From Gemmatimonadota bacterium (GTDB lineage: Bacteria > Gemmatimonadota > Gemmatimonadetes > Palauibacterales > Palauibacteraceae), in assembly GCA_965116475.1 (NCBI GenBank), contig OZ220691.1, positions 704,001-768,000 of the forward strand: a stretch of DNA of 64,000 nt, written 5' to 3'. Positions 3,723 to 41,924 of this stretch are shown here, in pieces. Position 1 is the stretch's first letter. Each line of letters opens with the position of its first letter. Made by a program: the position numbers and the translations under genes. The notes beneath the pieces were generated by a model. That model was not told where the DNA came from, searched no databases, and saw only the letters and a program-made list of their open reading frames with translations.

Positions 3723-4367
3723 TCAGCGGTCGATCAACTTTTCGAGGTCGCCATCGGAGGCGGCGCCGACGTGCCTGGCGCTGCCTGACACGAAGGTCGG
3801 GGTGGCGGTGATCCGCCAGCGGTCGGCGAGCGCGGCGTCGCGGGCGAGGCGCTCGGTCGTCGCGGCCGAGTTCAGGCAGAGGGCGAAGGGCGTTCCCGCG
3901 GGAACGTCCGCCGCCACCGCGACCGACTCCCAGTCCACGTCTCCGGTCTCCCAGTCATCGTTCGTCATCAGGTAGTCGTGCATGCGCGGGAACGTTCCGT
4001 GCTTCTCGGCGCAGATCGCGGCGCGTGCCGCCTGGGCGGAGCGCTCCGAGAGGGGCACGTGTACGAGCACCACGCGGACTTCGCCCGAGGCGACCCACCC
4101 GTTTACTGTCTCGTGCGACGAACGGCAGAAGGGACACAGGTAGTCGCTGAACTCGAAGATCGTCTGCGGGGCAGCCCCGCTGCCGAGCGCACTTCGCCGA
4201 GCCGCGGCGGCCTGTCTCCATTCCTCGCGATACAGCGCGAGCACCTGCCGCTCGGCCTTCCACTCCCGCAGGCGGCCGCCGACGACCCCCGATGGGCGGA
4301 AGGCGATCACCGCCAGGAGGATGCAGCACACGGCGAGACCGATGTCCTGGATCCCGGGGCGCTTCAT
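3723..4367 (-). CDS. Membrane-anchored DsbA-family thioredoxin-fold protein
   Basis: EFSDYLCPFC active site, cis-Pro loop ITATPTF, N-terminal TM; ATGA overlap with the upstream propeller. Confidence 0.88.
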   Translation of the reverse strand: MKRPGIQDIGLAVCCILLAVIAFRPSGVVGGRLREWKAERQVLALYREEWRQAAAARRSALGSGAAPQTIFEFSDYLCPFCRSSHETVNGWVASGEVRVVLVHVPLSERSAQAARAAICAEKHGTFPRMHDYLMTNDDWETGDVDWESVAVAADVPAGTPFALCLNSAATTERLARDAALADRWRITATPTFVSGSARHVGAASDGDLEKLIDR

Positions 4368-5668
4368 GTCCCCGGCGCCCTCGCGCCCGCGGGCAGCGGG
4401 ACGATCAGGACGTGTTCGACATCGAATTCGTCCCGTACCACCCCCACCGCCTCCGTGTCGTCGGCCCACAGCAGGTCGAAGCCGCCGGGGAACCCGACGT
4501 TCACGGCGGGGCTTCCCGGCCCGGCGTACACGCTCCAGACCGAGACGTCGTCTTCACCGCGCGCGGCGTCCGGTCGCGGCCGGTAGCCCGTCACCCAGAC
4601 GCGCCCGTCGGCGCCCGCAGTCACGGACCCCAGGGGCGGGAAGGAGTCGGGAAACGCCCACACATCGAGCGTGGCCGCGACACGGTCCCGCATCCCCGGC
4701 GGCAGAAGGCGGTTCATCTCGGCGCGGATGGGGACGAGCGCCATCTCCCGGTCGTCCGCGGTCACGGGCATCGATGGGAGGGAGAACTCGACCGGAGCCA
4801 GCGGGGTGCCGCCGGGCGTCACCCGCTCCGCGCGCGGACGTGCCGTGGACCCGAAGAGGACCACCGAATCGCGCGGCAGTACGAACGGCTGAGGCGAGAA
4901 CGGAATGCGGCCCGAGATGTACGAGTCTCCGGGATAGTTGAAGACCCGGATGCCCGTGGTCTCGGCGATGGGGTCGAAGCCCGTGCCGTCGGCCGATGTC
5001 AGGAAGATGACGATCTGCAGGGGATGAGACTCGCCCATCTCGTCGACGGCCCGGTCGGGCCTCGGCACCGCCCACACCAGCCGACCGTCGTTCAGGGCGC
5101 CCCGCAGCCGCGGGGATTGCAGGGTGTCCCCCGGAGGGATCGCGACCCCGACGCGTCGCACATTTCCGCCGGTGTACGGCCAGATGGACGCGCCTCCCCC
5201 CGCCCCGTCGTATACGAGCACGGAATCGCCGCGGTATTCGAAGAGCGCCGTCAGTTCCCCGAGTTCACGCGGACCGCCGCCCACGCCGCCCCGCGTGTCG
5301 CGCCACGCCCCATCGAGCGTGAACGTGCGCAGCGTGGCGTCGCCGCGGTTCGCCACCACCAGCACACCGGCCGACCGGTCCACGATGACGCCGGCGATGT
5401 CATGGAAATCCGTCTGCCCATCCCCGGACGCCCCGGACGCGCTCCCGAGCCGCAGGCGGGGCGACCCCGCGCGAAGATGCGCGGGGCCCGCTCCGAGGTC
5501 CGTTCCGACATCCGTTCCGACATCCGTTCCGAGGTCCGCTCCCGGTTCCGCCGAAGCGACCGTATCGGTACGGCTGTCCCCCTCCAGGCATGCGGCAGCC
5601 ACCATCGCCGCCGCGAATGTCGTCCAGTGCCGGGGCCGCATGCGGCCCCCCGTCGTCTTGAGCCTCAT
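4364..5668 (-). CDS. 6-bladed beta-propeller lipoprotein
   Basis: Lipobox AAAC, GGVGGGPRE motif shared with the other propellers, C-terminal VGVVRDEFDVEHV strand. Confidence 0.75.
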   Translation of the reverse strand: MRLKTTGGRMRPRHWTTFAAAMVAAACLEGDSRTDTVASAEPGADLGTDVGTDVGTDLGAGPAHLRAGSPRLRLGSASGASGDGQTDFHDIAGVIVDRSAGVLVVANRGDATLRTFTLDGAWRDTRGGVGGGPRELGELTALFEYRGDSVLVYDGAGGGASIWPYTGGNVRRVGVAIPPGDTLQSPRLRGALNDGRLVWAVPRPDRAVDEMGESHPLQIVIFLTSADGTGFDPIAETTGIRVFNYPGDSYISGRIPFSPQPFVLPRDSVVLFGSTARPRAERVTPGGTPLAPVEFSLPSMPVTADDREMALVPIRAEMNRLLPPGMRDRVAATLDVWAFPDSFPPLGSVTAGADGRVWVTGYRPRPDAARGEDDVSVWSVYAGPGSPAVNVGFPGGFDLLWADDTEAVGVVRDEFDVEHVLIVPLPAGARAPGT

Positions 5669-5684
5669 GTGATCACCATCACCG

Positions 5685-5957
5685 TTAGGGTAGATCGGGA
5701 TCGGAAGGAGGGCCCCAGATGGGAAAGAGGCATCCCCGCACGCACTCGTTGACCTCGTAGTTGCAGCCCCATTCACCGTCCAGGACGCAGTCCGCCCATC
5801 CCCGATAACAGTCGCTCACGCAGTCGCCACCGCCGCGCGCGGACGCGGCCCGGCCGGGTTGCGCCAGGATGGCCGTGGCCAGCACGAGGTTGAAACCAAG
5901 GAGTACCCAGCGTCCCGCTTTCGTTCCCGCTCTCGGTCCCGCTTTCGTCGTCTTCAT
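5685..5957 (-). CDS. Small secreted Cys-rich peptide (90 aa, 6 Cys)
   Basis: Strong RBS (GAGGGAGGGG), signal-like N-terminus ending PGRA, C-x3-C-x6-C-x7-C-x6-C-x3-C. Confidence 0.75.
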   Translation of the reverse strand: MKTTKAGPRAGTKAGRWVLLGFNLVLATAILAQPGRAASARGGGDCVSDCYRGWADCVLDGEWGCNYEVNECVRGCLFPIWGPPSDPDLP

Positions 5958-6238
5958 CGTCCCCTCCCTCTCCCGGGTTGTCGGAAGGCCGGGTCGCGGC
6001 CGCCAAGATCGTCGGCGCGCCCGTCGCGACCCTCCGGGACGGACCCTCCGTCCCATGCCTTCCGAGATTCACCTCCAGAATCCCCCGGGCTATCAACGGG
6101 CTATCAACTCCCGCACGGCCGGCGGGCAACCGGGCGGACGCCGGACAGGCGGGCGCACGCCGGGCGGCACTCGCCTGCCCTTCGCACGCCACGTATCGTC
6201 GGAACCTCACGGAACCTCGGGACGACAGGAGGGCCTGG

Positions 6239-7099
6239 ATGGCGGATGTGCTTTGCATAGGCGGGACGGGGACCGTCGGGAGCCGGGTCGTCGAGGGCCT
6301 GGTGGCCCGCGGCGCATCGGTCCGTTGCCTGACGCGCTCGGCGGACGGCGCGCAGGCGTCGACGGAGGGAGTCGAATTCGTGCGAGGCGACCTGGAGCGG
6401 CCCGACACGCTCGCTCCGGCGCTCGAAGGCGTGTCGCGCCTGCACCTCCTCACCGCGCTCCACCCGCGGGAGGCGCAACTCGGGATCGGGGCGGTCGATG
6501 CGGCCGCGGAGGCCGGCGTCGAGCGGATCGTCTTCCATTCCGCGCACCGCGCGCACGCGGCGCCCCACATCCCCCACTTCGCGAGCAAGATGGAGATCCT
6601 CGCCGCGCTCGAGGCCTCCGGCGTCCCGTGGGCCACCATCGAACCGAACCACTATTTCCAGAACGACCTGTGGCTGCGGCGGTCGCTCGAAGCCGGGGTC
6701 TACCCCGCGCCGCTCGGGGGCGCGGGACTGCACCGGGTCGACGTCCGCGACATCGCCGACGCCACCGTGAACGCGCTCCTCGACGACGGCCACGAGGGGA
6801 TCCGGCATCCGGTGGTGGGACCCGAACTCCTGACGAGCGCGGATGTCGTCGGCACCTGGAGCGAGCACCTCGGCCGCGAGATCGAGTACGTGGGCGACGA
6901 CCTCGACGCGTGGGAGGCGCGCGCCGGTCGGCACCTGCCGGACTGGCTCGTGAGGGACCTGCGCGTCATGTCGGAGTATTTCCTCTCCGACGGGCTCATC
7001 GCGACGGAGGAGGACTTCGCGACGATGAGCCACGTGCTGGGCCACGCGCCGCGCGTGTTCGAGGACTTCGTGCGGGAGACGGTCGCGGCCTGGCGCTGA
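6239..7099 (+). CDS. NmrA-like / atypical SDR NAD(P)H-binding protein
   Basis: GGTGTVG Rossmann motif, HFASK, VDVRDIA; RBS AGGAGG before ATG 6239. Confidence 0.88.
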   Translation: MADVLCIGGTGTVGSRVVEGLVARGASVRCLTRSADGAQASTEGVEFVRGDLERPDTLAPALEGVSRLHLLTALHPREAQLGIGAVDAAAEAGVERIVFHSAHRAHAAPHIPHFASKMEILAALEASGVPWATIEPNHYFQNDLWLRRSLEAGVYPAPLGGAGLHRVDVRDIADATVNALLDDGHEGIRHPVVGPELLTSADVVGTWSEHLGREIEYVGDDLDAWEARAGRHLPDWLVRDLRVMSEYFLSDGLIATEEDFATMSHVLGHAPRVFEDFVRETVAAWR

Positions 7100-7111
7100 G
7101 GAGATCGACAC

Positions 7112-7705
7112 ATGTTCACGATATACATCTTCAGTCTTCTCGTGGGCGGCGGCTTCCTCGCCCTGTCCGTGTTCGGCGACTTCCTGGACGGCATGGACAT
7201 CAGCATGGATGTCGACGTGGACGTCGATGTGGATATCGACGCGGACCTGGACGCGGGGGGCGCGGCCGACGTGGCGAGACTTCTCTCGCTGCGGACGATC
7301 GTCTACGCCATGTTCGGATTCGGCGCGACCGGCGCCATCCTGCACTGGTTCACGAGTCCCGCGGTCACGGCCGCCATCGCCGGCGTCACGGGACTGGCCT
7401 CCGGGGCGTTCATCGGCGCCGCCTTCCGCTACATCAAGCGCTCGGGCGCCGGCACCGCGCTCGGCGAGCGTTCGCTGGCCGGGTTGACGGGCGAAGTCAC
7501 GATGGAAATAGCGTCGGACGGTGCGGGTACGGTGAAGGTGTCGCGCGGCGAGCGCCGGTTCAGCGTGCGGGCCCGCATGGATGCGACGTGCCCGGACGAC
7601 CTGCCGCTGCGCGCCGGACAGTCGGTCGTCGTCGTGCGCATGACGGACGGCATCGCGGACGTCGTGCCCGTGGATCCCGAAGATATGCAACTGCTCGAGG
7701 AATGA
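7112..7705 (+). CDS. NfeD-like (YqiJ/YuaF-type) membrane protein
   Basis: TM helices with acidic DVDVD linker, C-terminal OB-like LAGLTGEV...G.V.V, upstream of flotillin. Confidence 0.8.
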   Translation: MFTIYIFSLLVGGGFLALSVFGDFLDGMDISMDVDVDVDVDIDADLDAGGAADVARLLSLRTIVYAMFGFGATGAILHWFTSPAVTAAIAGVTGLASGAFIGAAFRYIKRSGAGTALGERSLAGLTGEVTMEIASDGAGTVKVSRGERRFSVRARMDATCPDDLPLRAGQSVVVVRMTDGIADVVPVDPEDMQLLEE

Positions 7706-7712
7706 GGTCGAA

Positions 7713-9038
7713 ATGCAAGACTTTCTGAATCTCCTGGCCGCCCCGGTCGTGATGGCGGGCGTCTTCTTCGTCGTCGTACTCGTGGCGATCATCACCATCA
7801 AGAACCTGATCGTGATCGTTCCCCCCAACCGCGCGGCCGTGATCACGGGCCGGAACCGCATGCTGACCGACGGGCAGGCCGTCGGCTACCGCTCCATCTC
7901 GGGCGGGCGCACGCTCCGGATCCCGATCATCGAGACCGTCCAGCACATGAACCTCGAGACGATCCCCATCGAGGTCTTCGTCAACAACGCCTTCTCGAAG
8001 GGAAACATCCCGCTCAGCGTGGAGGCGATCGCGAACGTGAAGATCGCATCGGAGCCCGAGTGGGTGTTCAACAACTCGGTGGAGCGCCTGCTGGGGAAGA
8101 CGGAGGAGGAGGTGCGGGAGCTGGCGCAGGACACCCTGACCGGGAACCTGCGGGGTGTGCTCGCCACGCTCACGCCGGAAGCCGTGAACGAGGACCGGCT
8201 GGGCTTCGCCAAGGCGCTGGCGGAGGACGCGGGGGAGGACCTCGCGTCGCTGGGCTTCCATCTCGACGTGCTCAAGATCCAGAACGTGAGCGACGAGCGC
8301 GGCTACCTCGACGCGATCGGGCGCGAGAAGTCGGCCGAGGCGATCCGGCAGGCGGAGATCGCCGAGGCGCAGGCGGAGGCCGACACGCGCGAGGCGCAGG
8401 CCGAGGCGAGGCGGCGCGCCGAGGTGCGGGAGGCCGCGGCCTCGATCAAGATCGCCGAGGCCCAGAACGAGTTGCGGGTGCGCAAGGCCGAACTGCACCG
8501 CGAGGGCGACACCGCCGAGAAGATCGCGCGCGTGAAGGCGCAGGAGGCCGAGGTCGAGGCCGAGAAGATCCTCGAGATGAAGCGCGTGGAGCGCGAGGAG
8601 CAGCGGCTGCGGGCGGACGTGATCGAGCCCGCCAAGGCCGAGAAGATGGCCGCGTTCGCGCGGGCCGAGGCCGAGGCGGCCCCGATCCTGGAGCGCGGAA
8701 AGGCCCAGGTCGAGGTCCTGAAGCGGCTCTACGCCGAGGTCCAGACCGGAGGCGAGGCCGCGTTCGCCGTGTTCATGGCCGAGAAGCTCCCCGAACTGCT
8801 CGAGATCGCCGTCGGCGCCGTGGAGGGCGTGGACATCGACCGCGTCGTCGTCATGGACGGTGGCCAGGGCAAGGGCGTATCCAACGCCCTCAACCAGCGC
8901 GTGCGCGGCGCCTACGGGACGATGGAGGGACTGGCGTCGGTGCTGGGCCTCGACATCCAGGAGGTCCTCCAGCGGGCGGTCGGTTCCGGAGACGCGGACG
9001 GCGGCGAGGGATCAGCCCCCGAGCTTCCCCCCGCCTAG
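7713..9038 (+). CDS. Flotillin / SPFH domain protein
   Basis: N-terminal TM, SPFH core (GGRTLRIPIIE, LTGNLRGVLATLTPE), AE-rich coiled coil. Confidence 0.92.
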   Translation: MQDFLNLLAAPVVMAGVFFVVVLVAIITIKNLIVIVPPNRAAVITGRNRMLTDGQAVGYRSISGGRTLRIPIIETVQHMNLETIPIEVFVNNAFSKGNIPLSVEAIANVKIASEPEWVFNNSVERLLGKTEEEVRELAQDTLTGNLRGVLATLTPEAVNEDRLGFAKALAEDAGEDLASLGFHLDVLKIQNVSDERGYLDAIGREKSAEAIRQAEIAEAQAEADTREAQAEARRRAEVREAAASIKIAEAQNELRVRKAELHREGDTAEKIARVKAQEAEVEAEKILEMKRVEREEQRLRADVIEPAKAEKMAAFARAEAEAAPILERGKAQVEVLKRLYAEVQTGGEAAFAVFMAEKLPELLEIAVGAVEGVDIDRVVVMDGGQGKGVSNALNQRVRGAYGTMEGLASVLGLDIQEVLQRAVGSGDADGGEGSAPELPPA

Positions 9039-9084
9039 CCCCGGAATCCTCACGAGGGGCGATCCGTGAGAGATGTCGAGCGCG

Positions 9085-10197
9085 TCAACCTGGCTTCTCC
9101 ACGCGCACGCTGAGCTTTGCGATGCGCCACGGCGGGAAACTGCTGTTCTGGAGAAGATAGAGATGCCTGCCACCCCCCAGGACCCTCGAGTCCTCCGGCA
9201 ACGGCACCTCCTCGTACAGCTTGCGGCCCGTGTGCCGGTCGTAGATGTCGAGGGATGAATGATACTCCCCGAAGGGTCCGCCGGACTCGGGGTAACCAAA
9301 ACGACCATGCACCACGACGAGATGGGAATCCACAACTGCGATGTGCGAGATGGTGCCGCGCCCTCCGAGCAGTTCTGGCATCTGCGTGGGGTATGCGCCC
9401 GGGTTGAAGGCACCCGGCTCGAACACGGGGATCGGATCGAACGTGGAGGGAGGAACGCCGATCTGGCCGATCGAGTCGCCTGCGGCGTTCAGAATCGTCA
9501 CCGGGTAGCGCAGGGAATACGCCATATAGATGGAGTCGCCCGCTACGTCGAATGAGAAGCGCACCAGCGACGCCCAGTACGGTCTCTCCACGGGAATGAA
9601 CGGGAAGGTATAGCCGCTCCACGCTATCTCGTCAGCTGCCAGCCGATGCAGCAGTCGAGGCTGCTGCACGAACCGTGACACACCCTGAGTCGCCTCCGTG
9701 AAGAGCTTGATCCCCACCAGCAGATCGGAACCGATTTGTTCAATCCCTGACGGGATACCGGGGAGTTGTACGATGGTATCCGGCACGAGGTTCGCCGTGA
9801 GGTAGGTGAGGCGCGGCCCGGAGCCCAACACGGCGACCCGCCCCCTTGCGGTCTCGGTCAAGCCGTTGATCCTCCGGAACTCGAACGGGCCGTCGCCGAA
9901 TCGACCAAAAGCCGCCTCGAGCCGCCCCTGTGCGTCGTAGCTGCGGACCCTGGGGAGCTGCCCCTCGCCAAGCAGGAAGCCACCATCGGCCCGCTCCTTA
10001 AAGATCCCCGGAGTCGCGATCGAATCCTGCGGATTCTCGCTGAGCGTGATAATGACTTCGGTCTCGAACGCCTCATCGAGCGCGGCCCGCAGTGGCGGCA
10101 ACGGGTCGGGCGCCCTCCCGCACGCCAGGAGGGGCAAGACGGCCGCGCACGCCATCGTGCGGAGCGCACCGGCTCGTTCGCGGGCGAGCGTAACCAC
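9085..10197 (-). CDS. 6-bladed beta-propeller lipoprotein
   Basis: Lipobox LLAC, FGRFGDGPFEF motif; starts 3 nt after the peptide gene stop. Confidence 0.78.
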   Translation of the reverse strand: MVTLARERAGALRTMACAAVLPLLACGRAPDPLPPLRAALDEAFETEVIITLSENPQDSIATPGIFKERADGGFLLGEGQLPRVRSYDAQGRLEAAFGRFGDGPFEFRRINGLTETARGRVAVLGSGPRLTYLTANLVPDTIVQLPGIPSGIEQIGSDLLVGIKLFTEATQGVSRFVQQPRLLHRLAADEIAWSGYTFPFIPVERPYWASLVRFSFDVAGDSIYMAYSLRYPVTILNAAGDSIGQIGVPPSTFDPIPVFEPGAFNPGAYPTQMPELLGGRGTISHIAVVDSHLVVVHGRFGYPESGGPFGEYHSSLDIYDRHTGRKLYEEVPLPEDSRVLGGGRHLYLLQNSSFPPWRIAKLSVRVEKPG

Positions 10198-10200
10198 CGG

Positions 10201-10461
10201 CTATCGAACCACGATTTCCGGGATGCAGCACATCTCCAGCGCCGTGTAGCACGACCAGCCTCCGCATTGCCCGTCCCAGGGATCGCGGTGTTCCAGATCC
10301 ACGCACGGGCTGCCGAGTTCGTCCTCCCACTCCTCGACGCACGGATCCGTGCCCTCCTGCCCATCCAGCGCCGCCGGACCGACGGTTGTGGATGCGACGG
10401 CGAGTATGAAGGCCACCGCCAGCGCGGTGGCGATACGTGTGAACAGTGCGAACTTGTCCAT
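10201..10461 (-). CDS. Small secreted Cys-rich peptide (86 aa, 6 Cys)
   Basis: RBS AAGGAG, hydrophobic signal peptide, acidic core C-x11-C-x12-C-x4-C-x6-CC. Confidence 0.8.
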   Translation of the reverse strand: MDKFALFTRIATALAVAFILAVASTTVGPAALDGQEGTDPCVEEWEDELGSPCVDLEHRDPWDGQCGGWSCYTALEMCCIPEIVVR

Positions 10462-10473
10462 GTTGTCTGCTCC

Positions 10474-11076
10474 TTACGGATTCGAGGATTGGGTACGTAT
10501 GAGGCCCGTCGTGAGCGTCCCTCGTAGCGCGCCCACTTGGGCTTCGAAGCTCCAGCCGCAGTCCGAGGCGGCGGTCCTGGAATCGGCCAGCACCACGACT
10601 CCGGCACCGTCAACGAGAAGCTTCGTGTTAGGGAGAAGCGGACCGAACACAGCTTCCAGATCTTGTCGCGACGCTAAGGTGAACGTCGTGCCGCGAAGCG
10701 CCCGTCGCGCCTCATCGGGCACGTCATGATCACCGAACACCACGACATGGCGCTTCAGCAAAGGATCGTCCCCAAGAGCATTCCACACGGCGACCCTGGC
10801 ATTCAAGCAGGTCCGGCACCGCGCGAGATCGACGATCCAAAGCAGGTGAGCGTCCGCGGCGTCCGGTCTCTCGAGATCGAATGAAGACAGGGATACCGAG
10901 GTTCCGACCAGACGATCCCGGACGTTCGCCCGCTCGACCAGCGGGGTCGTCAACTGCAGCTTCGCCACAAGCTCGCGGTTGGATGAGGCCACGCTCCAAA
11001 CCAAGACCGCTCCGCCGAGTACCAGCCCGAATACGGCCAAGTCCAAGAGCGGTCTAAGGGACTTTCCTACCACCAC
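10474..11076 (-). CDS. Membrane-anchored thioredoxin-fold (TlpA-like) protein
   Basis: N-terminal TM, LLWIVDLARCRTC (CxxC), LPNTKLLVDGAGVV. Confidence 0.6.
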   Translation of the reverse strand: MVVGKSLRPLLDLAVFGLVLGGAVLVWSVASSNRELVAKLQLTTPLVERANVRDRLVGTSVSLSSFDLERPDAADAHLLWIVDLARCRTCLNARVAVWNALGDDPLLKRHVVVFGDHDVPDEARRALRGTTFTLASRQDLEAVFGPLLPNTKLLVDGAGVVVLADSRTAASDCGWSFEAQVGALRGTLTTGLIRTQSSNP

Positions 11077-11248
11077 TAGCGTCTCCCCCTTGCGACGAAA
11101 CCGGGTTTCTCCTCAGCCCCAGGTTGAGCTTCTCGGCAACTCGGCCACAAGGTCCCCAAATGGATGACATCTGACTGAACGTCATCCGATCAGGCGACAT
11201 CCACCTGCGGCCCCTCGGTCCGGCCTCGGCGCAACCGACGCGGCCTCC

Positions 11249-12460
11249 CTAGCGCACGATTTCGTAGTGCACGACGTAGGGGATGTCGAGCGCGTCCACC
11301 TCCACCACCCAGGCTTCGTTCCGGTTCGCGTAGTCTATGTGCCACGTGGCGGGTAGCCGGAAGCGGCCGATGGAAGCCCCCGACGCATCGAGCACGAGCC
11401 ACTCACGCTCGCCGTCTTCGTCCAGGCCGGCGATCCATGCGGTGCCGTCGCTGCCCACCACGACGTAGGCAACGGGAGGAAGATAGCGAGTTTGATCGAA
11501 GAACTCGCGTACGGCGTTCGTAAACGCACGCCGGCCAGCTACGACTTCAGACGTCTCCGGATAACCGAACATCTTCTCGATCTCGCCATCGTAGTAGCCG
11601 TCCGGGACGGGGCGCGGTGGATAGGCGAGGCGACGGTGGAACAGGGTGTCGCCGTTTGAACCCACCATTGTCACGCCGAACTCGGCGGGGCCTTCGCCTG
11701 CCCACGTCGCGCCGTCGACGACCACTGCGCGCGACCTGTCCGGCGCGAATCGCCATACGTCCCCTGTTTCAATGGGGTGACCCAGGCGCACCGTTCCATC
11801 TTCCACCAACCCGGCCGAAACCTCGACTGAAGTCGGCACCGACAGCAGCGCAAGCGTGTCGAGCAGGGCGCCCGCCGTGTCCAACACCACGATGGGTACG
11901 GTCGTGAGGATCCCTTGCTCGGGAGCCCCTTCGGAGGGCCGCCCGGCGGCCGCTGTGCGTGATCCGGACAGCGCGACGACCGGTACAAGTCGTGCCGTTC
12001 CGTGCGCGTCCGGTGAGTACGCATGGTAGGGGATCGTCCTCACCTCACCGGTGACAACATCATAGAACGTGAAGCGCCGCAGTTCTGCGTCCCCGATCGA
12101 TAGGATCCCCGGTTCGATCCACCCCATCGTCGTCGGGCTTGCCAGTTCGCCGGGGCCCGACCCGCGGCGCCCGAGGTCGCGAACGAACTCGCCGTCACGA
12201 GTGAAGACCCGGATCATACCATCCCGTGCTAAGACGACGTACACATGGTCCTGGTCGGCCAACACCCCGCCGACGGCCCAGAGTCCCTGCACCGGATCAT
12301 CCGAGCTTCCGATGGCGAGACCCCGCCGCAGGGTCCACTCCGGTATCTCGCCGATCCCCTCGTCCGACGCGGGGGCGGCGCAGGCGAGCGCCATGGTCGC
12401 AAGGAAGACACTCCCGGCAAGTCGTCGCGACGCACCCATGCGGGCGGAGGTCTTCGTCAA
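11249..12460 (-). CDS. 6-bladed beta-propeller lipoprotein
   Basis: Lipobox ALAC, LGRRGSGPGEL, C-terminal WVVEVDALDIPYVVHY. Confidence 0.8.
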   Translation of the reverse strand: MTKTSARMGASRRLAGSVFLATMALACAAPASDEGIGEIPEWTLRRGLAIGSSDDPVQGLWAVGGVLADQDHVYVVLARDGMIRVFTRDGEFVRDLGRRGSGPGELASPTTMGWIEPGILSIGDAELRRFTFYDVVTGEVRTIPYHAYSPDAHGTARLVPVVALSGSRTAAAGRPSEGAPEQGILTTVPIVVLDTAGALLDTLALLSVPTSVEVSAGLVEDGTVRLGHPIETGDVWRFAPDRSRAVVVDGATWAGEGPAEFGVTMVGSNGDTLFHRRLAYPPRPVPDGYYDGEIEKMFGYPETSEVVAGRRAFTNAVREFFDQTRYLPPVAYVVVGSDGTAWIAGLDEDGEREWLVLDASGASIGRFRLPATWHIDYANRNEAWVVEVDALDIPYVVHYEIVR

Positions 12461-12571
12461 CAGCTCTGCGCGGTCAGCAACCCCGCGCGGAACGCAAGAA
12501 CGAGAACCGTGAGGCCTGGACCGCTACCGTGATTCACGAGTGCATGGAAGCTGCAGAGGGCCACCGATGGT

Positions 12572-13621
12572 TCAGCAGCTCCGGCGGGACACGTCGGCGT
12601 CGAGCCGCAGCGTCATCACGTAGTCGATGCCCAGGGGATCGGACGCCACGGCGTGGATGACGCCGGAGGGGCCGACCTCTGTTACCGCCACGGGATAGGG
12701 TACGGAGGCCGAACCGAGATACACGCCGCAGTGGTCCACCAGATCCCAGGTCGACCTATTGGGATCCGCCGCGCGTCTGGCCCAGATCCAGCCTTCGGGC
12801 GAGACATCCAGTTCCGCCGGATCCGGCTGCGGAATCTCGATGGTGCGGAGCGTATCGCCGGCGATGGTCAGTTCATGCAGCAGGGGTTCACCAGGGGGGG
12901 CCAGCCAAACCGTACCCTCCGGTGAAGCCGTCCAGGCGATCTGGGCACGCGTGGGCCTTATCATCGTGAGCGTAATTGTCCCGCGCGTGGACGCGCCCGC
13001 CGTTTCAACCGTGCGCCGCGTGCCGTCCGTGGCCATGGCACGCGCGTCGATTCTCAGTGTGTCGCCAGACAACGCATAGTCCTGCGTGATCCCGCCACGG
13101 GCCACGTAGCTGTACGTTGAGTCCCCGAAGACTCTGTACTGTTGTTCGTATACCCGGCCCTGTCTGTCGACGGCCATCACTACGGTGATCGGCTGAGTGG
13201 GGTTGCGGCGCAGGTCCGGCACCGTCGTGCTTCGCGCATGTTCCACGCCAAGCGAATCCAGGACCGACTGAAACACGCTATCGTCAATCCACAGCCGACC
13301 CCGACCCTCGTCCCAAGTCACGCGAGCGGGAAACTGGCGTCTGTGCCGCCGTTCGCCCGGCCCCTCGCCCTCGGGGGCAAGCCGACGAATGAACTCGCCG
13401 TCGCGGTCGAACAGGCGCACGTCCCTCCAGCCGGGATCGAGTACGTAGATGCGACCGGCTGAATCCACCGCGAGATCGTGGATGTCGCCGAACACATCGG
13501 GTCCCGACCCTTCGGCACGCCCGAGGCGCGACTCCTCGATCAGGTGGAATTCGCGAGTCTGGGCGGCAAGCGAGGACGCCGAAACCAGCAAGGCAAACGT
13601 GATGGCTGTCGCTGACTTCAC
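12572..13621 (-). CDS. Secreted 6-bladed beta-propeller
   Basis: GTG start with RBS GAGGAG, signal SLAAQ, LAPEGEGPGE; paralogue of 15182..16243. Confidence 0.8.
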   Translation of the reverse strand: MKSATAITFALLVSASSLAAQTREFHLIEESRLGRAEGSGPDVFGDIHDLAVDSAGRIYVLDPGWRDVRLFDRDGEFIRRLAPEGEGPGERRHRRQFPARVTWDEGRGRLWIDDSVFQSVLDSLGVEHARSTTVPDLRRNPTQPITVVMAVDRQGRVYEQQYRVFGDSTYSYVARGGITQDYALSGDTLRIDARAMATDGTRRTVETAGASTRGTITLTMIRPTRAQIAWTASPEGTVWLAPPGEPLLHELTIAGDTLRTIEIPQPDPAELDVSPEGWIWARRAADPNRSTWDLVDHCGVYLGSASVPYPVAVTEVGPSGVIHAVASDPLGIDYVMTLRLDADVSRRSC

Positions 13622-13669
13622 CGAACTCCTCTTCGGGGCAGGAATCTCGACCTGGAACGGCACGATAAG

Positions 13670-13700
13670 GTATGGACCCGGCCGACGCTCGGAAGGTCAC
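13670..13700 (-). promoter_or_regulatory. Putative ECF-sigma promoter copy 1 (GTGACC-N17-GTCCATAC)
   Basis: Exact bipartite motif found five times in intergenic DNA, here 49 nt upstream of the propeller start. Confidence 0.7.
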
Positions 13701-13749
13701 GAGGTTGGCGTGCGGCCAAGGCCGGACCTCTCTCGGCAGCGACGTCAGG

Positions 13750-14769
13750 CTACTTGGTCCAGACGACAACCACGCCGCATCGCGAATCGGACCCGCCGAA
13801 TTCGGCCGGAAGCGACGCCGCCCCCCGGTACACCTCTACTCCGGCCACCTCGATGGGAAGCACCAAAGCGTCGAGGGAGGAACTCCCAACCTGGATGTTG
13901 TCCAGATACACAGCCATGGTGCAACCTGCACGAGCGTTGAACATCCCAGCCCGAACGCTGGGGAGTTCCTCTATCATATTCGAGATTCGCAGCGGTCTCC
14001 GACGCTCGATGTCCGCAGCCGTATAGAAGGTCCCGAGGCCGAGCAACTCTCCCCAGTGTTGCCGCTCGTAGAAGCCCTTGATCTCCAGACGTCGCGACCG
14101 CGTGGTCGACACCACCAGGGGCTCCAGTTCCATCGGCTCCCGCACAAGGCTGATCTCCAACTCCGTCGTGCGTCCGGTGGTCACGTCAACCGCGTGGCGA
14201 AGCGGCGCGTAGCCGAGCCGTCGAACCTGTAGCTCGTGCCGCCCCGCCGGCACGCCGGTCAGCCGGAACAAGCCCTGTCTGTCGCTTGCGACCTCCGTCG
14301 GCCGGCCGACGACGCTCACGGCCGCCGTCTCCACGGGACGCCCGGTCTCCGTGTCGACCAAGCGCCCGATCAGACGTCCCGACCGAACCGAACTCAGGAT
14401 CCGCAGGCGGACCTCTCGCTCCTCCCCGGCTACGATGCCCTCCGGCGCCGCCTGCCCGCTCGAATGATCCCCGAATTCCGCCCACACGACCGCCTGACTC
14501 GCGTCGCGCGGAACGCACAACCGAAGGCGGCCGTTGGCATCCGTCGCCTCTCGCACCGGCATTCGTTCCGCATCGGTCCAGCGAAGAACTACCGTGGCGC
14601 CGGGCAGTACGATACTCCCGGATTCGTCCAGCACGGTGACAAGAAGCGAGGCCGACTGACCGCAAGCCGCCTGCTGGGCCGCGGTCGGGGCCGAGTTGGC
14701 CAGCAAAGCGGCTGAAGCAATAATCCCACATGTACTTAGAGGTCGGCACCTGGACGACCAAAGATTCAT
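13750..14769 (-). CDS. Secreted 2x carboxypeptidase-regulatory-like + TonB plug protein, no beta-barrel
   Basis: RBS GGAGG, signal peptide, GRFRLTGVP..H.L.VRRLGY-type domain, plug end GVEVYRGAASLPAEFGGSDSRCGVVVVWTK*. Confidence 0.8.
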   Translation of the reverse strand: MNLWSSRCRPLSTCGIIASAALLANSAPTAAQQAACGQSASLLVTVLDESGSIVLPGATVVLRWTDAERMPVREATDANGRLRLCVPRDASQAVVWAEFGDHSSGQAAPEGIVAGEEREVRLRILSSVRSGRLIGRLVDTETGRPVETAAVSVVGRPTEVASDRQGLFRLTGVPAGRHELQVRRLGYAPLRHAVDVTTGRTTELEISLVREPMELEPLVVSTTRSRRLEIKGFYERQHWGELLGLGTFYTAADIERRRPLRISNMIEELPSVRAGMFNARAGCTMAVYLDNIQVGSSSLDALVLPIEVAGVEVYRGAASLPAEFGGSDSRCGVVVVWTK

Positions 14770-14825
14770 GTCTTTCCTCCCGTACACCCGGCCAACTCCG
14801 TCTCGATTAGATGCGGCACGACAAC

Positions 14826-14856
14826 GTATGGACGTGGAGAGCGCCCGGCAGGTCAC
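14826..14856 (-). promoter_or_regulatory. Putative ECF-sigma promoter copy 2
   Basis: GTGACC tgccgggcgctctccac GTCCATAC. Confidence 0.7.
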
Positions 14857-14949
14857 GAAGCCGAGAGGAAGTGATGGTGTCCTGATGCGGGGGGATCGCG
14901 AGGCCGAGCAACTCTCCCTAGCTGAGCGTGAGCTCGGGCCGACGTCGCG

Positions 14950-15170
14950 CTATCGGGTCCACACTACGATGGCACCGCACCGCGCGTCGGACCCGGCGAA
15001 CTCCCCCGGGAGCGACGCCGCACCCTTGTACACTTCAACGGCGGCGACCTCCCTGAGCGAGATCGGTACGGGCATTCCTCTCAAATCAATCCCGTCGAGG
15101 TAGTACTTCATCGGGCACGGCCGACCGGAGAACCCTGCGCTCAAGCGTCGATTGCGCAGGTTCGAGGTTA
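14950..15170 (-). pseudogene. C-terminal remnant of a plug-only protein
   Basis: NLRNRRLSAGFSGRPCPMKYYLDG...EVYKGAASLPGEFAGSDARCGAIVVWTR*; all upstream domains are missing. Confidence 0.85.
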
Positions 15171-29745: not shown

Positions 29746-30861
29746 CTACTTCGTCCACACCACGACGGCGCCGCAGCGCGCGTCGGACCCGCCGAACTCC
29801 GCCGGGAGCGTGGCCGGCCCCTTGTACACTTCGACGCCGACGATCTCGAACCCCCGCAGGTTCCACCCGTCACGCCACTCGACCCCATCGACGAAAACCT
29901 TCACGCTGCACGTCAGGTTCAAGAAACCCGCGCTCATGCGCCGATTCCTCGGCGACCGCCAGGTGATCCCGGGGACGTTGTTTGCCACAAGGGAGCGGAC
30001 GTCCCTGGGTCGCCACCGCTCGATGTACTCGGGTGAGAAGAAGTAGCCGTTGCCGGTCAGCTCGCCCCAGTACTTCCGTTCGTAGAACCCCTTGATCTCG
30101 AGCCGGCGCAGTCTCGCCACGGTCGCCACGATCGGCTCCATCTCCACGGGCGTCGGCACGAGGCCGATGTCCACCTCCGTCGTGACGCCCGGCGTTACGT
30201 CGATCCGATGGCGGAGCGGGGCGTAGCCGATGCGTCGCACCTCCAGGTGACGCACGCCGGGCCGCACGTCGCTGAGGATGAACCTGCCCTGTCGGTTGCT
30301 CGCAGCTTCCGGCGCGTGACCGGTCACGGATACCGCCGCCGTGGCCACGGGGTTTTCCGTCAGCGCATCGTACACGCGGCCGATGAGGCGCCCCCGGCGA
30401 ACTTCGGACAGGAGCACCCGGAGTTCGACCTCCCGCACCTCTCCGGGCGCGAGGGCCACGGTCGCCTGTTCGCTCGAATCGTCGCCCAGTTCCGCCCACA
30501 GCACCGCTTCTTTCGCCTCCTCAGGGGCGCAGAGCAGGAAGCGCCCCTCCGGCCCGGCCGTTTCTCGCAGCGGCATCTCCTCGACGTCGGACCAGTGGAC
30601 CACGAGCATGGCGCCGGGGATCGGGATGTTGCCCGACTCGTCGACGACCGTCACCTGAAGGGAAGGCCGGTCCCGGCAACCGTCGTCCTGCCCCAGGACC
30701 GGGCCGGTCGACGCCGCGAGGAGGAGGGAGAAGAAGAAGAAGAGGGAGATGATGCGGCAGGTTCGCCGCGGGCGGCGTGGTTCGTAACGGGGAACTCCGG
30801 GTTCGTTGCCCAAGGCCGTTCCTTTCGCTCTGTCCCGCGCGGGTGCGCCCGGGCAGGACAC
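29746..30861 (-). CDS. Secreted 2x carboxypeptidase-regulatory-like + TonB plug protein, no beta-barrel
   Basis: Signal VLGQ, same architecture, ends GSDARCGAVVVWTK*; start uncertain. Confidence 0.82.
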   Translation of the reverse strand: MSCPGAPARDRAKGTALGNEPGVPRYEPRRPRRTCRIISLFFFFSLLLAASTGPVLGQDDGCRDRPSLQVTVVDESGNIPIPGAMLVVHWSDVEEMPLRETAGPEGRFLLCAPEEAKEAVLWAELGDDSSEQATVALAPGEVREVELRVLLSEVRRGRLIGRVYDALTENPVATAAVSVTGHAPEAASNRQGRFILSDVRPGVRHLEVRRIGYAPLRHRIDVTPGVTTEVDIGLVPTPVEMEPIVATVARLRRLEIKGFYERKYWGELTGNGYFFSPEYIERWRPRDVRSLVANNVPGITWRSPRNRRMSAGFLNLTCSVKVFVDGVEWRDGWNLRGFEIVGVEVYKGPATLPAEFGGSDARCGAVVVWTK

Positions 30862-38021: not shown

Positions 38022-39170
38022 TTACCCTCCAGGCCGTGTGCTCATCCAGTCGCACTCCTCGTCCGAGACCAGGTACATCCGAATCCAGGTCTCAAGCATC
38101 TCCGAATCGTCGATTCGCCGGTCCAGGACGAATAGCGTATCGCCCCGGAAGGTTTCCATCGGTCGAATGTCGAAGTCGTGCGGCACGAGGGTGTCCACAC
38201 ACGCTTGTGAGAGGTCTGGCGAGAGGATCCCGACCCAGGTCTTGGCGGTGAGCACCGGCATCGGTTCCATCTTCAGTGCCGTCTGGTCGTGGTGGGTGAA
38301 CAGGAAACCGCCGCCCGGCCGCGGGAAAAGTTGGCGCAGTCGCGAACTCTCCTCCAACTGCTCGCGGTACGGGATGCGCTCGATGTCGATGCGTTCCCTG
38401 AGGTCGGCCGGGACCCCCTTCCTCCTCGCCACCGGGATGTCCAGCGTGTCCACTGCCTCGCCCCGCAGGTTCAGGACGAACATCTCGTCCAGCCCGGACC
38501 AGCCCTGCACAAACCGTCCGTCGGCGTACGCAAGCGAACCGATCCGAAAAAGGCTCGCATAGGACCAGTTGTCGGTGCTGAGCGACGCGACGTATTCCCG
38601 GGGGAGTCCGCCCATGCTCGTGAATTCGTCCGTGGCCGGCCGCCAACGAGTCAGCGATGTTCCGCGCTGGAGCTCGAAATCCGTCATCCAGACGTCCTGG
38701 CCGATCACCACCGGGGGTGTGATTCCGCCCAGCGCGGGAAAGTCCACAACCCGAATCGTCTCTCCGGTGTTTCGGTCGAAGACGTTCACTCGCCGCGACC
38801 CTGTGGTCTGGGCGGCTACGGTCGAATCGTCGATGAGCATCGGAGTTCTGGGCCCGCCGCGAAACTCTCCCGGCCCCTCTCCCGGCCGTCCGTACACGAG
38901 CATCAGGCTGCCGTCTCTGCGGAACCTGAGGAGCCGTCCCGAGAAGATGTCCGGTATGTAGAAGGACCCGTCGAACGGGTCGATGACCGGAGTGTACGGA
39001 TTGCCGATGTACAGCGTGTCGGCTTCCGGCAGCAGAATGCTGTCGACGGCAGTGAGGGTTGGCCCCGCCGCGTCCGCGGTCACGGGATCGCCGGACTCGG
39101 AGCCGCAGCCCGGGATCAGGAACATGCCACCGGCGAACAGCGCGACGCCGACACGACGGGACCAGCCCAC
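38022..39170 (-). CDS. 6-bladed beta-propeller lipoprotein
   Basis: Lipobox IPGC, YGRPGEGPGEF. Confidence 0.78.
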   Translation of the reverse strand: MGWSRRVGVALFAGGMFLIPGCGSESGDPVTADAAGPTLTAVDSILLPEADTLYIGNPYTPVIDPFDGSFYIPDIFSGRLLRFRRDGSLMLVYGRPGEGPGEFRGGPRTPMLIDDSTVAAQTTGSRRVNVFDRNTGETIRVVDFPALGGITPPVVIGQDVWMTDFELQRGTSLTRWRPATDEFTSMGGLPREYVASLSTDNWSYASLFRIGSLAYADGRFVQGWSGLDEMFVLNLRGEAVDTLDIPVARRKGVPADLRERIDIERIPYREQLEESSRLRQLFPRPGGGFLFTHHDQTALKMEPMPVLTAKTWVGILSPDLSQACVDTLVPHDFDIRPMETFRGDTLFVLDRRIDDSEMLETWIRMYLVSDEECDWMSTRPGG

Positions 39171-40396: not shown

Positions 40397-40435
40397 AGGC
40401 TTCGGCGCTGCCGTTCCTAACGAAGCCGACGTAGT

Positions 40436-41557
40436 TCACCGAATGGGTTCACCTGGTTGCAAGTCGCGATCCCAACCGTGAATCCACTCGACATCGTACC
40501 AATCCACGCGGCGCTCCGGCACTACACCGCCGGCATCCCGCACGACGAGAACTGCGAGCGTGTCCCCGAGGACATCCATCCCCAAGACCTTGTCCGCCAC
40601 CTGCAGCGTCAACGCGTACTCGGGACCTTTGTCGGTGAGTCGAAACATGTCGATGTAGCTGAGCGGGTGGACCACGTCGGTCCCGGCGTTCCAATGGGAC
40701 ACCGCCCAGAACCGCCGCTGGTCATCCACGACTCTCGGCCCGTACCACTCCTTCGGTCTGGCCCGGATCTCCTCCTCGTCGGGAGCCCAGGGCGCCGAGC
40801 GCAGAGTCCGTAGCTCCGACGCCACGTCCTCCGCGGTCGGGTATCGCTCCACATACGTCGGGGACCGCACGATCGCGGTGGGCCCCTCCGCGTCACGATC
40901 CGCATACCAGACGAGAACCTCGCCGTAGCAGGCCAGAAACAGGAGATCACCGCTTCCGTCCCCGTTCGCCAGCCGACGCATCCTCTGCAGAGGCGTCGAG
41001 CAACTCACGACCTCCGCTTCGTGCGGGAACGCTCGCGCCCACTGGACGCGACCTGTTGCCACGTCGATCTCCGCCTGCACGACCGGCCGGTCACCGTTTG
41101 AGTCAAGCCTCCTGTACCAACCAAGCACTGTCCCGTCCATCGCCTCGCGGCGGCTGGCGCTTAACCGGTCAGGGAGCCCACCCGTGGAAGCGAGGAACCC
41201 CCCCGACCCGGAGAACAGCGACAGGCGCTGCAGTCGCCGATCAATTACGCCAACGGTACCTGACGGGCCACGAAGTACGTCGCCCGGAAACGTGAACTCG
41301 CCTGGTCCCTCGCCTTCAGTACCAAACTCGACAGACTTGCCGCCGGGATCGATGCAGATCACGCGGTGCCAGTAGGACTCAATGACACATGCTGCACCGC
41401 CGCGCAGAAGCGTGAGCCCACTGCGTACGCTCAGCGGTGCCGGCGCGGAGGCAACCTGGTCGAGCTCGATTGGCTGAATTGCGATATCGGCCGGCTCGCC
41501 ACACGCCGCGGCGACCAGCGTAGTGACGAGCGCGGCCTGACGACGATTATTGGTCAC
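40436..41557 (-). CDS. 6-bladed beta-propeller lipoprotein
   Basis: Lipobox AAAC, FGTEGEGPGEF. Confidence 0.75.
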   Translation of the reverse strand: MTNNRRQAALVTTLVAAACGEPADIAIQPIELDQVASAPAPLSVRSGLTLLRGGAACVIESYWHRVICIDPGGKSVEFGTEGEGPGEFTFPGDVLRGPSGTVGVIDRRLQRLSLFSGSGGFLASTGGLPDRLSASRREAMDGTVLGWYRRLDSNGDRPVVQAEIDVATGRVQWARAFPHEAEVVSCSTPLQRMRRLANGDGSGDLLFLACYGEVLVWYADRDAEGPTAIVRSPTYVERYPTAEDVASELRTLRSAPWAPDEEEIRARPKEWYGPRVVDDQRRFWAVSHWNAGTDVVHPLSYIDMFRLTDKGPEYALTLQVADKVLGMDVLGDTLAVLVVRDAGGVVPERRVDWYDVEWIHGWDRDLQPGEPIR

Positions 41558-41697
41558 TAATACGGCCCCTCACAGCCCTCCATGCACTCGTCGAGGTGGG
41601 CCTGTGCCTCGGCCATGGCATCGTCGTGCGAAGCCCCTTGGATTTCCATCCAGTCGTTGTAAGTCCGGGAAGCCTCTAGAGAGCATCTTGCGTTGGT
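41557..41697 (-). pseudogene. Probable C-terminal remnant of a Cys-containing peptide gene
   Basis: TNARCSLEASRTYNDWMEIQGASHDDAMAEAQAHLDECMEGCEGPY*; stop overlaps the propeller GTG; no signal peptide or independent start. Confidence 0.45.
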
Positions 41698-41924
41698 CAG
41701 CGATCCGGGTCGTGGTCCCCGCTGCGGCGACGGCGGCGGGCCTCGAGGCGGCGGCGGAGGAGGGGGCTCACGAGGCCCGACGTCGTGCCGCCGATGAGGG
41801 CGAGGATGCCGACGGGGCCGGGGTTCGAGAACATCGGGGCGCTGATCTGCGTGTTCATCCACATCCCGAGCGCCGCAAACACGACCGCGCCGACGACGAA
41901 GCCGAGCCAGGTGAGCCGGATCAC
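41697..41924 (-). CDS. Small membrane protein (2 TM)
   Basis: Two hydrophobic segments, basic C-terminal tail, co-oriented with the upstream operon. Confidence 0.65.
   Translation of the reverse strand: MIRLTWLGFVVGAVVFAALGMWMNTQISAPMFSNPGPVGILALIGGTTSGLVSPLLRRRLEARRRRRSGDHDPDR

Follow-up and report, generated by a model that had tools for sequence, protein, structure and literature searches.

Closest described systems

From database annotation, we take certain uncharacterized Bacteroidales gene neighborhoods to combine a small protein of the NVEALA family (PF14055), a six-bladed propeller of the DUF5128/TolB-like kind and a TlpA-like protein. Here we analyze a comparable arrangement in a Gemmatimonadota bacterium, in which genes for small, predicted exported, cysteine (Cys)-rich proteins (hereinafter peptides) are directly followed by genes for propeller lipoproteins, in some cases beside a gene for a thioredoxin-fold protein. 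It lies in a stretch of 64,000 nucleotides (hereinafter the window; bases 704001–768000 of GenBank contig OZ220691.1) of a single-contig genome of 3.62 Mb with a G+C content of 69%, and the closest named relatives of the window proteins belong to 'Candidatus Palauibacter' and 'Longimicrobiales' metagenome-assembled genomes of the Gemmatimonadota. The two arrangements, as we presume the Bacteroidales one to be, share a tight grouping in which a six-bladed propeller lipoprotein is accompanied by a small, Cys-rich export product and by a CxxC protein of thioredoxin fold anchored in the membrane. The likeness extends to the propellers themselves: the best structural match of one of them (propeller 2, below) is an exported protein of Bacteroides fragilis (PDB 4raa), one propeller paralogue in the window passes the DUF5128 cut-off, and one elsewhere in the genome passes that of TolB_like. 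In contrast to the Bacteroidales neighborhoods, the peptides here are non-NVEALA proteins that fall into no fewer than four families unrelated to one another, the genome is that of a high-GC Gemmatimonadota bacterium, and the thioredoxin-fold partners also include a DsbA-like variant and a domain without Cys that forms part of an anti-sigma factor.

The nearest characterized precedent known to us for this set of parts may be methylamine dehydrogenase, an analogy only, the heavy subunit of which, MauB, is a seven-bladed propeller. According to a preprint, its Cys-rich light subunit requires the CxxC protein MauD for its six disulfides (bioRxiv 10.64898/2026.03.05.709764). The likeness comprises a small disulfide-rich exported subunit, a propeller partner and a dedicated CxxC maturation protein. 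It ends there: Pfam scans of the present peptides and propellers gave no match to the MauA or MauB families, the propellers are predicted to be of the six-bladed NHL type rather than seven-bladed, and the cassettes contain neither MauG nor MauE and show no sign of a quinone cofactor. The one gene for a MauE/DoxX-like membrane protein to exceed the cut-off (31.6 bits against 27; genome region 955571–956873) was considered as a part of the system and set aside, as it lies about 0.7 kb from a propeller paralogue with unrelated genes between them; two small genes of unknown kind follow it, upstream of that paralogue.

Two further comparisons are relevant. One of the cassettes begins like the envelope-signaling modules of the extracytoplasmic function (ECF) type that include co-transcribed periplasmic partners: its first genes code for an ECF sigma factor and for an anti-sigma factor with a zf-HC2 domain and a large, predicted periplasmic part. 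It differs from such modules in the Cys-free, thioredoxin-like putative sensor end of the anti-sigma factor and in the Cys-rich peptide and propeller lipoprotein that follow. In class II bacteriocin operons the peptide gene is accompanied by one for immunity and, in some cases, by one for an accessory thioredoxin-like protein. Like the cassettes, they combine a small secreted peptide held by disulfides with a gene immediately downstream and can have a thioredoxin-fold accessory; they differ in that here the signal is of the Sec type, no dedicated ATP-binding cassette (ABC) exporter was found among the scanned neighbors, and the downstream gene codes for a propeller lipoprotein of 370–430 aa instead of a small immunity protein.

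A full-text literature search found no paper on NVEALA or DUF5128, a search combining the components returned nothing relevant, and one on anti-sigma factors with thioredoxin-like domains returned nothing on a module like that described below; the text of a Palauibacterales genomics paper (PMC10469786) contains none of the terms propeller, NHL, eukaryotic-like, lipoprotein, cysteine and thioredoxin. The parts come from known superfamilies (NHL/DUF5128, DsbA- and TlpA-type), the peptide families are new, and the function of the unit is not described in the literature searched. In its Gemmatimonadota version the unit comes with three kinds of thioredoxin-fold protein and with peptides from no fewer than four unrelated families, and one form of it is coupled to an ECF sigma factor. 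It offers a handle on the large, unexplained expansion of propeller lipoproteins in these sponge-associated bacteria (about 35–55 paralogues in 3.6 Mb), and on how specialized thioredoxin-fold proteins become dedicated to single small substrates.

Peptide genes directly precede propeller genes in four cassettes and across the genome

The initial annotation of the window, made from the sequence alone, had described four peptide–propeller pairs spaced 0–16 nt apart, each peptide with its own Cys pattern. Every ORF (open reading frame) it named is present, all on the minus strand; the gaps are 16, 3, 10 and –1 nt, and the computed Cys spacings differ from peptide to peptide. In cassette 1, peptide 1 (5685–5957) is a 90-aa precursor with a Sec-type signal sequence and six Cys (spacings 3, 6, 7, 6, 3), followed after 16 nt by the 434-aa lipoprotein propeller 1 (4364–5668), which overlaps by 4 nt the gene for a DsbA/DsbG-like protein (3723–4367; thioredoxin fold, CxxC with Cys 78 and 81). 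Cassette 2 starts with a gene for a putatively membrane-anchored TlpA/ResA-like CxxC protein of 200 aa (10474–11076), 12 nt upstream of peptide 2 (10201–10461; an 86-aa precursor with a signal sequence and six Cys, spacings 11, 12, 4, 6, 0); the 370-aa lipoprotein propeller 2 (9085–10197) follows 3 nt downstream. The first gene of cassette 3 codes for an ECF-type sigma factor (27559–28452), and is followed by an anti-sigma factor ORF (25172–27667; zf-HC2, a TPR-like middle and a Cys-free thioredoxin-like C-terminal domain), by peptide 3 (25165–25371; a 68-aa precursor with a signal sequence and five Cys, spacings 4, 7, 1, 11) and, 10 nt downstream of it, by propeller 3 (24597–25154), a broken gene that retains the lipobox. 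Although it had been listed as the propeller of its pair, the window copy of propeller 3 is only a 5' half: it no longer aligns beyond about residue 172 and is just 185 aa long, against about 350–364 aa in five of six aligned relatives (the sixth, at locus L026, differs at the 3' end). Cassette 4 consists of a peptide remnant (41557–41697), the C-terminal half of a twin-CX3C peptide, and of the 373-aa lipoprotein propeller 4 (40436–41557), which it overlaps by 1 nt; it has no thioredoxin-fold neighbor. The near-zero gaps suggest that the translation of peptide and propeller is coupled.

We then asked how far the pairing extends beyond the window. A hidden Markov model (HMM) built from 11 window propellers and searched against the genome ORFs of at least 150 aa matched 55 ORFs, 35 of them with E < 1e-14. 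Independently of these, a genome-wide scan for small ORFs (40–140 aa with an N-terminal hydrophobic stretch, at least four later Cys and coding-like G+C at the third codon position, GC3) retrieved 15, six of which immediately precede a propeller ORF from the set of 55 (binomial probability of at least six, 8.7e-7). These six are three window peptides and the ORFs at genome positions 1565175–1565441, 1959012–1959212 and 2108713–2108967. Among the other nine, six carry a codon-position G+C signature that, judged by the values, points to the antisense frame of a longer gene, and the remaining three are of other kinds, one being a membrane protein with a zinc-ribbon-like end. A second test restricted to coding-like ORFs, with a strict GC3 filter that excluded the genes of a lower-GC island, found an upstream small Cys ORF at four of 32 propellers and at two of 2223 other genes (Fisher P = 4.9e-7). 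Thus, the enrichment of small Cys-rich ORFs upstream of propellers, the absence of which had been named as grounds for dropping the idea, is present. A relaxed scan for Cys-poor small signal-peptide ORFs upstream of the 55 propellers gave nothing recurrent, and was a rough one that also missed peptides 1 and 3 through start-codon choice.

The peptides are conserved, selected and inherited with their propellers

The intact peptides share a layout of basic N-terminus, hydrophobic stretch and Cys-rich part; the signal peptides were judged by eye and by a hydrophobicity rule. Homologs of peptide 1 are present in nine of ten congeners searched, with Cys 46, 50, 57, 65 and 72 invariant in nine aligned sequences. 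Peptide 2 has open-frame relatives in four of 24 congeners searched, and a fifth match (E 0.007) was set aside as noise; across 17 sequences of 22–76% identity, which include distant copies from public genomes, its six Cys are the sole invariant columns. Peptide 3 is present in eight of ten congeners, and its five Cys are invariant in nine sequences. The mean pairwise ratio of nonsynonymous to synonymous substitution rates (dN/dS) is 0.29, 0.41 and 0.43 in the signal parts of peptides 1, 2 and 3, respectively, and 0.41, 0.30 and 0.24 in their mature parts. Because the Cys are invariant in relatives and dN/dS is 0.24–0.43, we consider the peptide ORFs, on these comparative grounds, to be real genes under purifying selection. 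By the same token the suggestion that the peptides are polymorphic, in the sense of diversifying selection, was not borne out: means of 0.24–0.43, averaged over the sequence, give no sign of it. The signal part of peptide 1 (5835–5957) stands out among eight orthologues by a dS of 0.10 against 0.47 in the mature part, about 4.6 times lower, which suggests that the nucleotide sequence itself is constrained or that the 5' end was recently exchanged.

That the fourth peptide is a remnant, as initially annotated, is evident from its alignment with residues 42–84, the C-terminal half, of an intact 84-aa paralogue elsewhere in the genome (2108713–2108967; 60% identity, E 1.7e-10). The remnant lacks the signal sequence and the first CX3C; the paralogue contains both CX3C pairs, and a 1-nt overlap joins it to its own propeller (2107616–2108713), as in the case of the remnant. 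This family is present in two of ten congeners. A 75-aa ORF with a hydrophobic N-terminus and a GC3 of 0.95 (41697–41924) ends where the remnant starts and overlaps the longer frame of the remnant; a small membrane protein with no relation to it and the front part of a broken gene, now displaced, are two possible identities.

No peptide matches a Pfam or NCBIfam family at E 0.01, the NVEALA family to which the analogy had been drawn included; in the whole genome the NVEALA model has a single match, of 17.6 bits against a cut-off of 27, within a 979-aa frame elsewhere. In a collection of 5.8 billion proteins the peptide 2 family amounts to only 36 clusters, all of them lacking both a functional name and a Pfam domain, and an ESM Atlas look-up of peptide 2 gave no usable match. 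Weak peptide matches outside the genus (E 0.001–0.01) were taken as noise, since tblastn found no cassette component in the loci fetched for them.

The gene order around the peptides is conserved too. Cassette 1 was compared at nine loci from relatives: peptide 1, propeller 1 and dsbA are complete in six, and one further locus is cut by its end. In the L018 congener, an intact peptide 1 is directly followed by the DsbA-like gene and the propeller is gone; the L020 congener carries two degenerate copies of the peptide 1 region, with an in-frame TGA in one of them, and of its propeller only the final 47 residues are left. A propeller lies directly downstream of peptide 2 in five of five true matches and next to peptide 3 in 13 of 13 copies from relatives. 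Anti-sigma factor, peptide 3 and propeller occur together in eight of eight loci. Five of five further peptide 3 copies, from three genomes, sit in a full unit of ECF sigma factor, anti-sigma factor, peptide and propeller; therefore the unit was duplicated as a whole. Judged by this comparison, the peptide–propeller pairs are real, conserved units, as had been proposed.

Co-inheritance also links peptide 2 to its redoxin neighbor. Among 145 genomes of the order, the TlpA-like protein and peptide 2 occur in the same eight of 36 congeners (the present genome included), adjacent in each, and two genomes of another genus have weak redoxin matches without the peptide. The 72 propeller-2-like loci taken from public genomes include 15 with an adjoining Cys-rich signal-peptide ORF and 20 that encode a relative of the TlpA-like protein; both occur at 14, the peptide alone at one, the redoxin alone at six and neither at 51 (Fisher P = 1.8e-9, a value overstated by the non-independence of related genomes). 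At three of the six redoxin-only loci a tblastn match to peptide 2 is still present. Where propellers lack a peptide, their upstream neighbors are other DUF5128 propellers or assorted unrelated genes. Conversely, in 12 metagenome loci found by anchoring the search on the redoxin, a Cys-rich signal-peptide ORF starts within about 40 nt after the redoxin in seven, an eighth (L124) has a peptide 2 relative in front of the preceding propeller, and a propeller is present in 11. The survey of redoxin co-occurrence called for by the initial annotation thus came out in its favor for cassette 2, with the redoxin at 14 of the 15 peptide-bearing propeller-2-like loci.

The propellers are diverged lipoproteins with an NHL-like fold

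All seven peptide-linked propellers of the genome (7/7) carry a lipobox. Propeller 1 (propeller HMM E 5.7e-92) has its lipobox Cys27 as its only Cys and is 24% identical to the paralogue at 11249–12460; the lipobox likewise supplies the only Cys of mature propellers 2 and 3, and propeller 4 (E 8.6e-74) has four further Cys in its mature part. For propeller 2 (lipobox Cys26) we obtained an AlphaFold2 model with a predicted local distance difference test score (pLDDT) of 86.7 and a predicted template modeling score (pTM) of 0.85. The top Foldseek match of the model is the B. fragilis protein 4raa, followed by many six-bladed NHL domains (TRIM2, TRIM71, Brat and Thin among them) and by 3s9j (DUF4221), at probability 1.00 and TM-scores of 0.6–0.7 normalized by target, and a sequence profile searched against PDB sequences likewise recovered NHL domains (E 5e-14). 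The model thus predicts a six-bladed NHL-like fold. Propeller 2 has 217 relatives, the few named ones of which are called hypothetical protein.

The four peptide-linked window propellers have no Pfam match at E 0.01. Their paralogues at 11249–12460, 12572–13663 and 15182–16243 score 21.4–21.8 bits, just below the DUF5128 (PF17170) cut-off of 22.9, and that at 19466–20704 exceeds it with 39.2 bits; the peptide-linked propeller of another locus of the genome (L002) exceeds the TolB_like (PF15869) cut-off (35.1 against 29.2 bits). The paralogues have diverged strongly, often to about 25–30% identity or to a link by one motif alone. That motif, GxGPGE with its glutamate, is invariant in 31 paralogues, in which otherwise just one Gly (97%) and one Trp (94%) exceed 90% conservation.

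Several propeller paralogues have a signal sequence without a lipobox and stand directly downstream of genes for barrel-less CarboxypepD_reg (and TonB Plug) proteins of about 350–380 aa: 13750–14856 before 12572–13663, and 17047–18186 with 16296–17198 before 15182–16243. Another such gene (22458–23081) precedes the propeller fragment 22053–22427, further copies lie at 28679–29866 and 29746–30861, and one CarboxypepD_reg/Plug protein is encoded upstream of the peptide–propeller pair at genome locus L001 as well.

Three different thioredoxin-fold neighbors

The thioredoxin-fold neighbors of cassettes 1–3 are three different things. That of cassette 1 (3723–4367) is recognized by sequence, with 68.7 bits to Thioredoxin_4 (PF13462; cut-off 23.2), 37.4 bits to DSBA and a DsbG-like match at E 3e-12. 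That of cassette 2 (10474–11076) has no Pfam or NCBIfam match at E 0.01, with the Redoxin, AhpC-TSA and Thioredoxin families among those searched, and its profile found no thioredoxin-family chain among PDB sequences, only a chance lectin match. Its AlphaFold2 model (pLDDT 75.2) consists of an N-terminal helix (residues 8–56) and a domain for which Foldseek recovered thioredoxin, DsbE, ResA, StoA, TlpA and CcmG (best probability 1.00, E 7.5e-5 and weaker). The CxxC (Cys 87 and 90) and a third Cys (173) are invariant in 14 sequences. By its model, then, this is probably a membrane-anchored TlpA/ResA-like thioredoxin fold with a CxxC. In cassette 3, the C-terminal approximately 120 residues of the anti-sigma factor matched 2cvb, a thiol-disulfide isomerase/thioredoxin, in a profile search against the PDB (E 0.0038), with SCO and AhpC/TSA proteins weaker, and its AhpC/TSA-type look-alikes in the ESM Atlas serve as leads only. 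The redoxin-like tail that had been ascribed to this protein is thus plausible on the strength of a weak profile match; the domain has no conserved Cys and therefore cannot be redox-active.

The mature propellers 1–3 have no Cys outside the lipobox; hence the peptide is the only Cys-rich export product of cassettes 1–3, and no other plausible disulfide substrate is left for the neighboring CxxC protein of cassettes 1 and 2. The genome encodes one VKOR and two DsbD/CcdA-type proteins, and a DsbB was not found in it; both oxidizing and reducing routes are available to CxxC proteins. A thioredoxin-fold neighbor as a feature of the arrangement stands for cassettes 1 and 2 and, more weakly, for cassette 3, and fails as a general rule, no such gene lying among the scanned neighbors of three further pairs of the genome. 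Likewise, a redoxin dedicated to the peptide is well founded for cassette 2, given its predicted TlpA/ResA-like fold, invariant CxxC and co-occurrence, and is not a constant part of the arrangement.

An ECF sigma factor module adjoins peptide 3

The sigma factor of cassette 3 (27559–28452) scores above the cut-offs for Sigma70_r2 (45 bits), Sigma70_r4_2 (61.3 bits) and Sigma70_ECF, and the anti-sigma factor (25172–27667) for zf-HC2 (24.1 bits, cut-off 22.2), with an anti-sigma model match at E 1.5e-7. The window ORF lacks the stop codon found in relatives, which end before peptide 3. Its read-through (25172–25402) covers peptide 3 in another frame over about 75 codons and yields an Arg-rich tail that is not conserved.

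Transcripts, regulatory sites and a complex prediction

The sequencing runs that contain window DNA include a sponge metatranscriptome, and in this run contigs 95–99% alike cover parts of the DsbA-like gene, of propeller 1 and of the genes between the cassettes. No contig of that one run covers peptide 1 or cassette 2; as only contigs were available and DNA was possibly in the library, uncovered parts prove nothing. A promoter and terminator scan of 3400–11400 returned no promoter-like site and two terminator-like sites against 2.9 expected by chance, which is uninformative for this high-GC organism. The complex of mature peptide 2 with propeller 2, predicted from alignments of 17 and 36 rows and without controls, had scores of 0.59, 0.01 and 0.01 in its runs, which speak neither for nor against an interaction.

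In the window and at loci L001–L003, no RiPP (ribosomally made and post-translationally modified peptide) maturase, ABC exporter or C39 peptidase was found among the neighbors scanned, nor any radical SAM, YcaO or lanthionine synthetase gene or double-glycine leader among the precursors and neighbors scanned, in keeping with the claim that the cassettes have no classical RiPP maturase.

A proposed mode of action and its alternatives

We propose, with roughly even confidence, that the cassettes are two-gene envelope modules in which an exported disulfide mini-protein works with its own propeller lipoprotein, sometimes assisted by a helper or wired to an ECF sigma factor. The small precursor would be exported by means of its Sec-type signal sequence; its four to six Cys would be oxidized to give a compact mini-protein of about 35–55 residues; and this would work with the propeller lipoprotein encoded 0–16 nt downstream, most likely as a bound partner, the two forming either a ligand and its receptor or a small and a large subunit. 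The helper in cassette 1 would be the DsbA-like protein, and in cassette 2 the TlpA/ResA-like CxxC protein may form or reshuffle the disulfides of the peptide, while helper-less modules would rely on the general machinery of the cell (VKOR, DsbD/CcdA-type). In cassette 3, the peptide–propeller pair may be wired to the ECF sigma/anti-sigma switch, the redox-dead thioredoxin-like periplasmic end of the anti-sigma factor plausibly sensing the peptide or the whole pair. This keeps part of the initial annotation, the description of which was accurate and in which the pairs and the cassette 2 redoxin stand, and drops its polymorphism, of which nothing was seen.

Several observations weigh against this proposal. 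The majority of propellers stand without a peptide: 49 of the 55 propeller ORFs of the genome lack one, and 51 of the 72 propeller-2-like loci have neither peptide nor redoxin. The propeller clearly functions in the absence of a peptide. In two relatives the propeller at the peptide 1 locus is lost or fragmentary and dsbA is kept. No thioredoxin-fold gene was found among the scanned neighbors of the three further genome pairs (L001–L003), and proteins of the TlpA/ResA type are usually reductants. Window cassettes 3 and 4 are damaged. The N-terminus of the peptides could be a membrane anchor instead of a cleaved signal. Peptide 3 has an odd number of Cys (five) and its propeller has no conserved partner Cys; a pairing of the fifth Cys with the propeller was considered and rejected, as the propeller alignment shows no conserved Cys beyond the lipobox.

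A wider form of the proposal would see a cross-phyla envelope module, with a mini-protein ligand and an NHL-type propeller receptor, in which thioredoxin folds set (with CxxC) or read (Cys-free) the redox state of the ligand and so control an ECF sigma factor; it might act as a sensor of redox state or of cell contact, perhaps used by a symbiont in its sponge host. We regard this wider form as a speculation that is quite improbable.

Among the alternatives, a bacteriocin-like toxin/immunity system is unlikely, if worth keeping in view. The peptide would be an antibacterial or anti-eukaryotic toxin from which the propeller protects the producer, and the peptide-less propellers would be orphan immunity genes gathered in an island. 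The patchy distribution within the genus (peptide 2 in eight of 36 congeners, the peptide 4 family in two of ten), the occurrence of a separate propeller with each of several unrelated peptide families, the low-GC island at 9–29 kb with its tandem paralogues and truncated or chimeric remnants, and the gene order, in which a toxin would come first with its immunity gene directly downstream, overlapping or nearly so, are all what such a system would be expected to show. However, dN/dS values of 0.24–0.43 give no sign of an arms race, the signals are of the Sec and not the double-glycine type, and neither an ABC exporter nor a C39 peptidase nor a lysis gene occurs among the scanned neighbors. Other propellers of the family are paired with CarboxypepD_reg/Plug proteins or unrelated genes, and the coupling of every examined peptide 3 copy to an ECF sigma/anti-sigma pair is atypical for bacteriocin loci.

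The propeller could, instead, be an enzyme that modifies or processes the peptide, with the small ORF as the precursor in a RiPP-like pathway poor in maturases. Peptidyl-hydroxyglycine lyase is an NHL propeller enzyme, the propellers here are of the NHL type, their GxGPGE motif with its glutamate is invariant in 31 paralogues, and the small ORF is laid out like a precursor. Nevertheless, beyond this motif, one Gly and one Trp no column is more than 90% conserved, a pattern more in line with binding scaffolds than with a common active site; the majority of propellers lack a peptide; and no other maturase or exporter lies nearby among the scanned neighbors. We hold an enzyme–substrate relation to be very improbable.

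That the genes are mere neighbors, ordinary periplasmic mini-proteins co-transcribed with lipoproteins and beside thioredoxin-fold genes for general envelope redox, would suit the three unrelated thioredoxin-fold types, the three pairs with none and the loss of the propeller beside peptide 1 in two relatives, but has little probability in view of the genome-wide enrichment of Cys ORFs upstream of propellers, the co-inheritance of peptide 2 with redoxin and propeller, and the duplication of cassette 3 as a module.

Other propellers and gene debris in the window

Of the window's 12 propeller genes and gene fragments, eight lack a peptide, all of them on the minus strand: five paralogues (11249–12460, 12572–13663, 15182–16243, 19466–20704 and 23291–24637), two fragments (21123–22025, truncated, and 22053–22427, chimeric) and a further paralogue at 38022–39170 (propeller HMM E 3.3e-80) with no candidate peptide upstream. 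The CarboxypepD_reg/Plug proteins are interleaved among the peptide-less propellers of the array at 11249–24637. This array falls within the stretch at 9–29 kb, the G+C content of which is 0.62–0.67 against about 0.70–0.74 across most of the remaining window, and nearly all genes of which are on the minus strand.

The low-GC stretch (9000–29000) is crowded with propeller paralogues and gene debris. The truncated copy at 21123–22025 is 56% identical to propeller 2, and the chimera at 22053–22427 joins the N- and C-terminal ends of a relative of 12572–13663, to which they are 87% and 98% identical. The ORF at 14950–15144 resembles a C-terminal piece of a Plug protein. Between two propeller genes lies a short ORF (20795–21058) without a Pfam match, the start of which, by eye, may resemble the N-terminus of an IS3-type transposase OrfA. 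The region between cassettes 1 and 2 (7112–9038) includes two plus-strand genes, one NfeD-like, with a score below the cut-off, and one of the SPFH/Band 7 (flotillin-like) kind.

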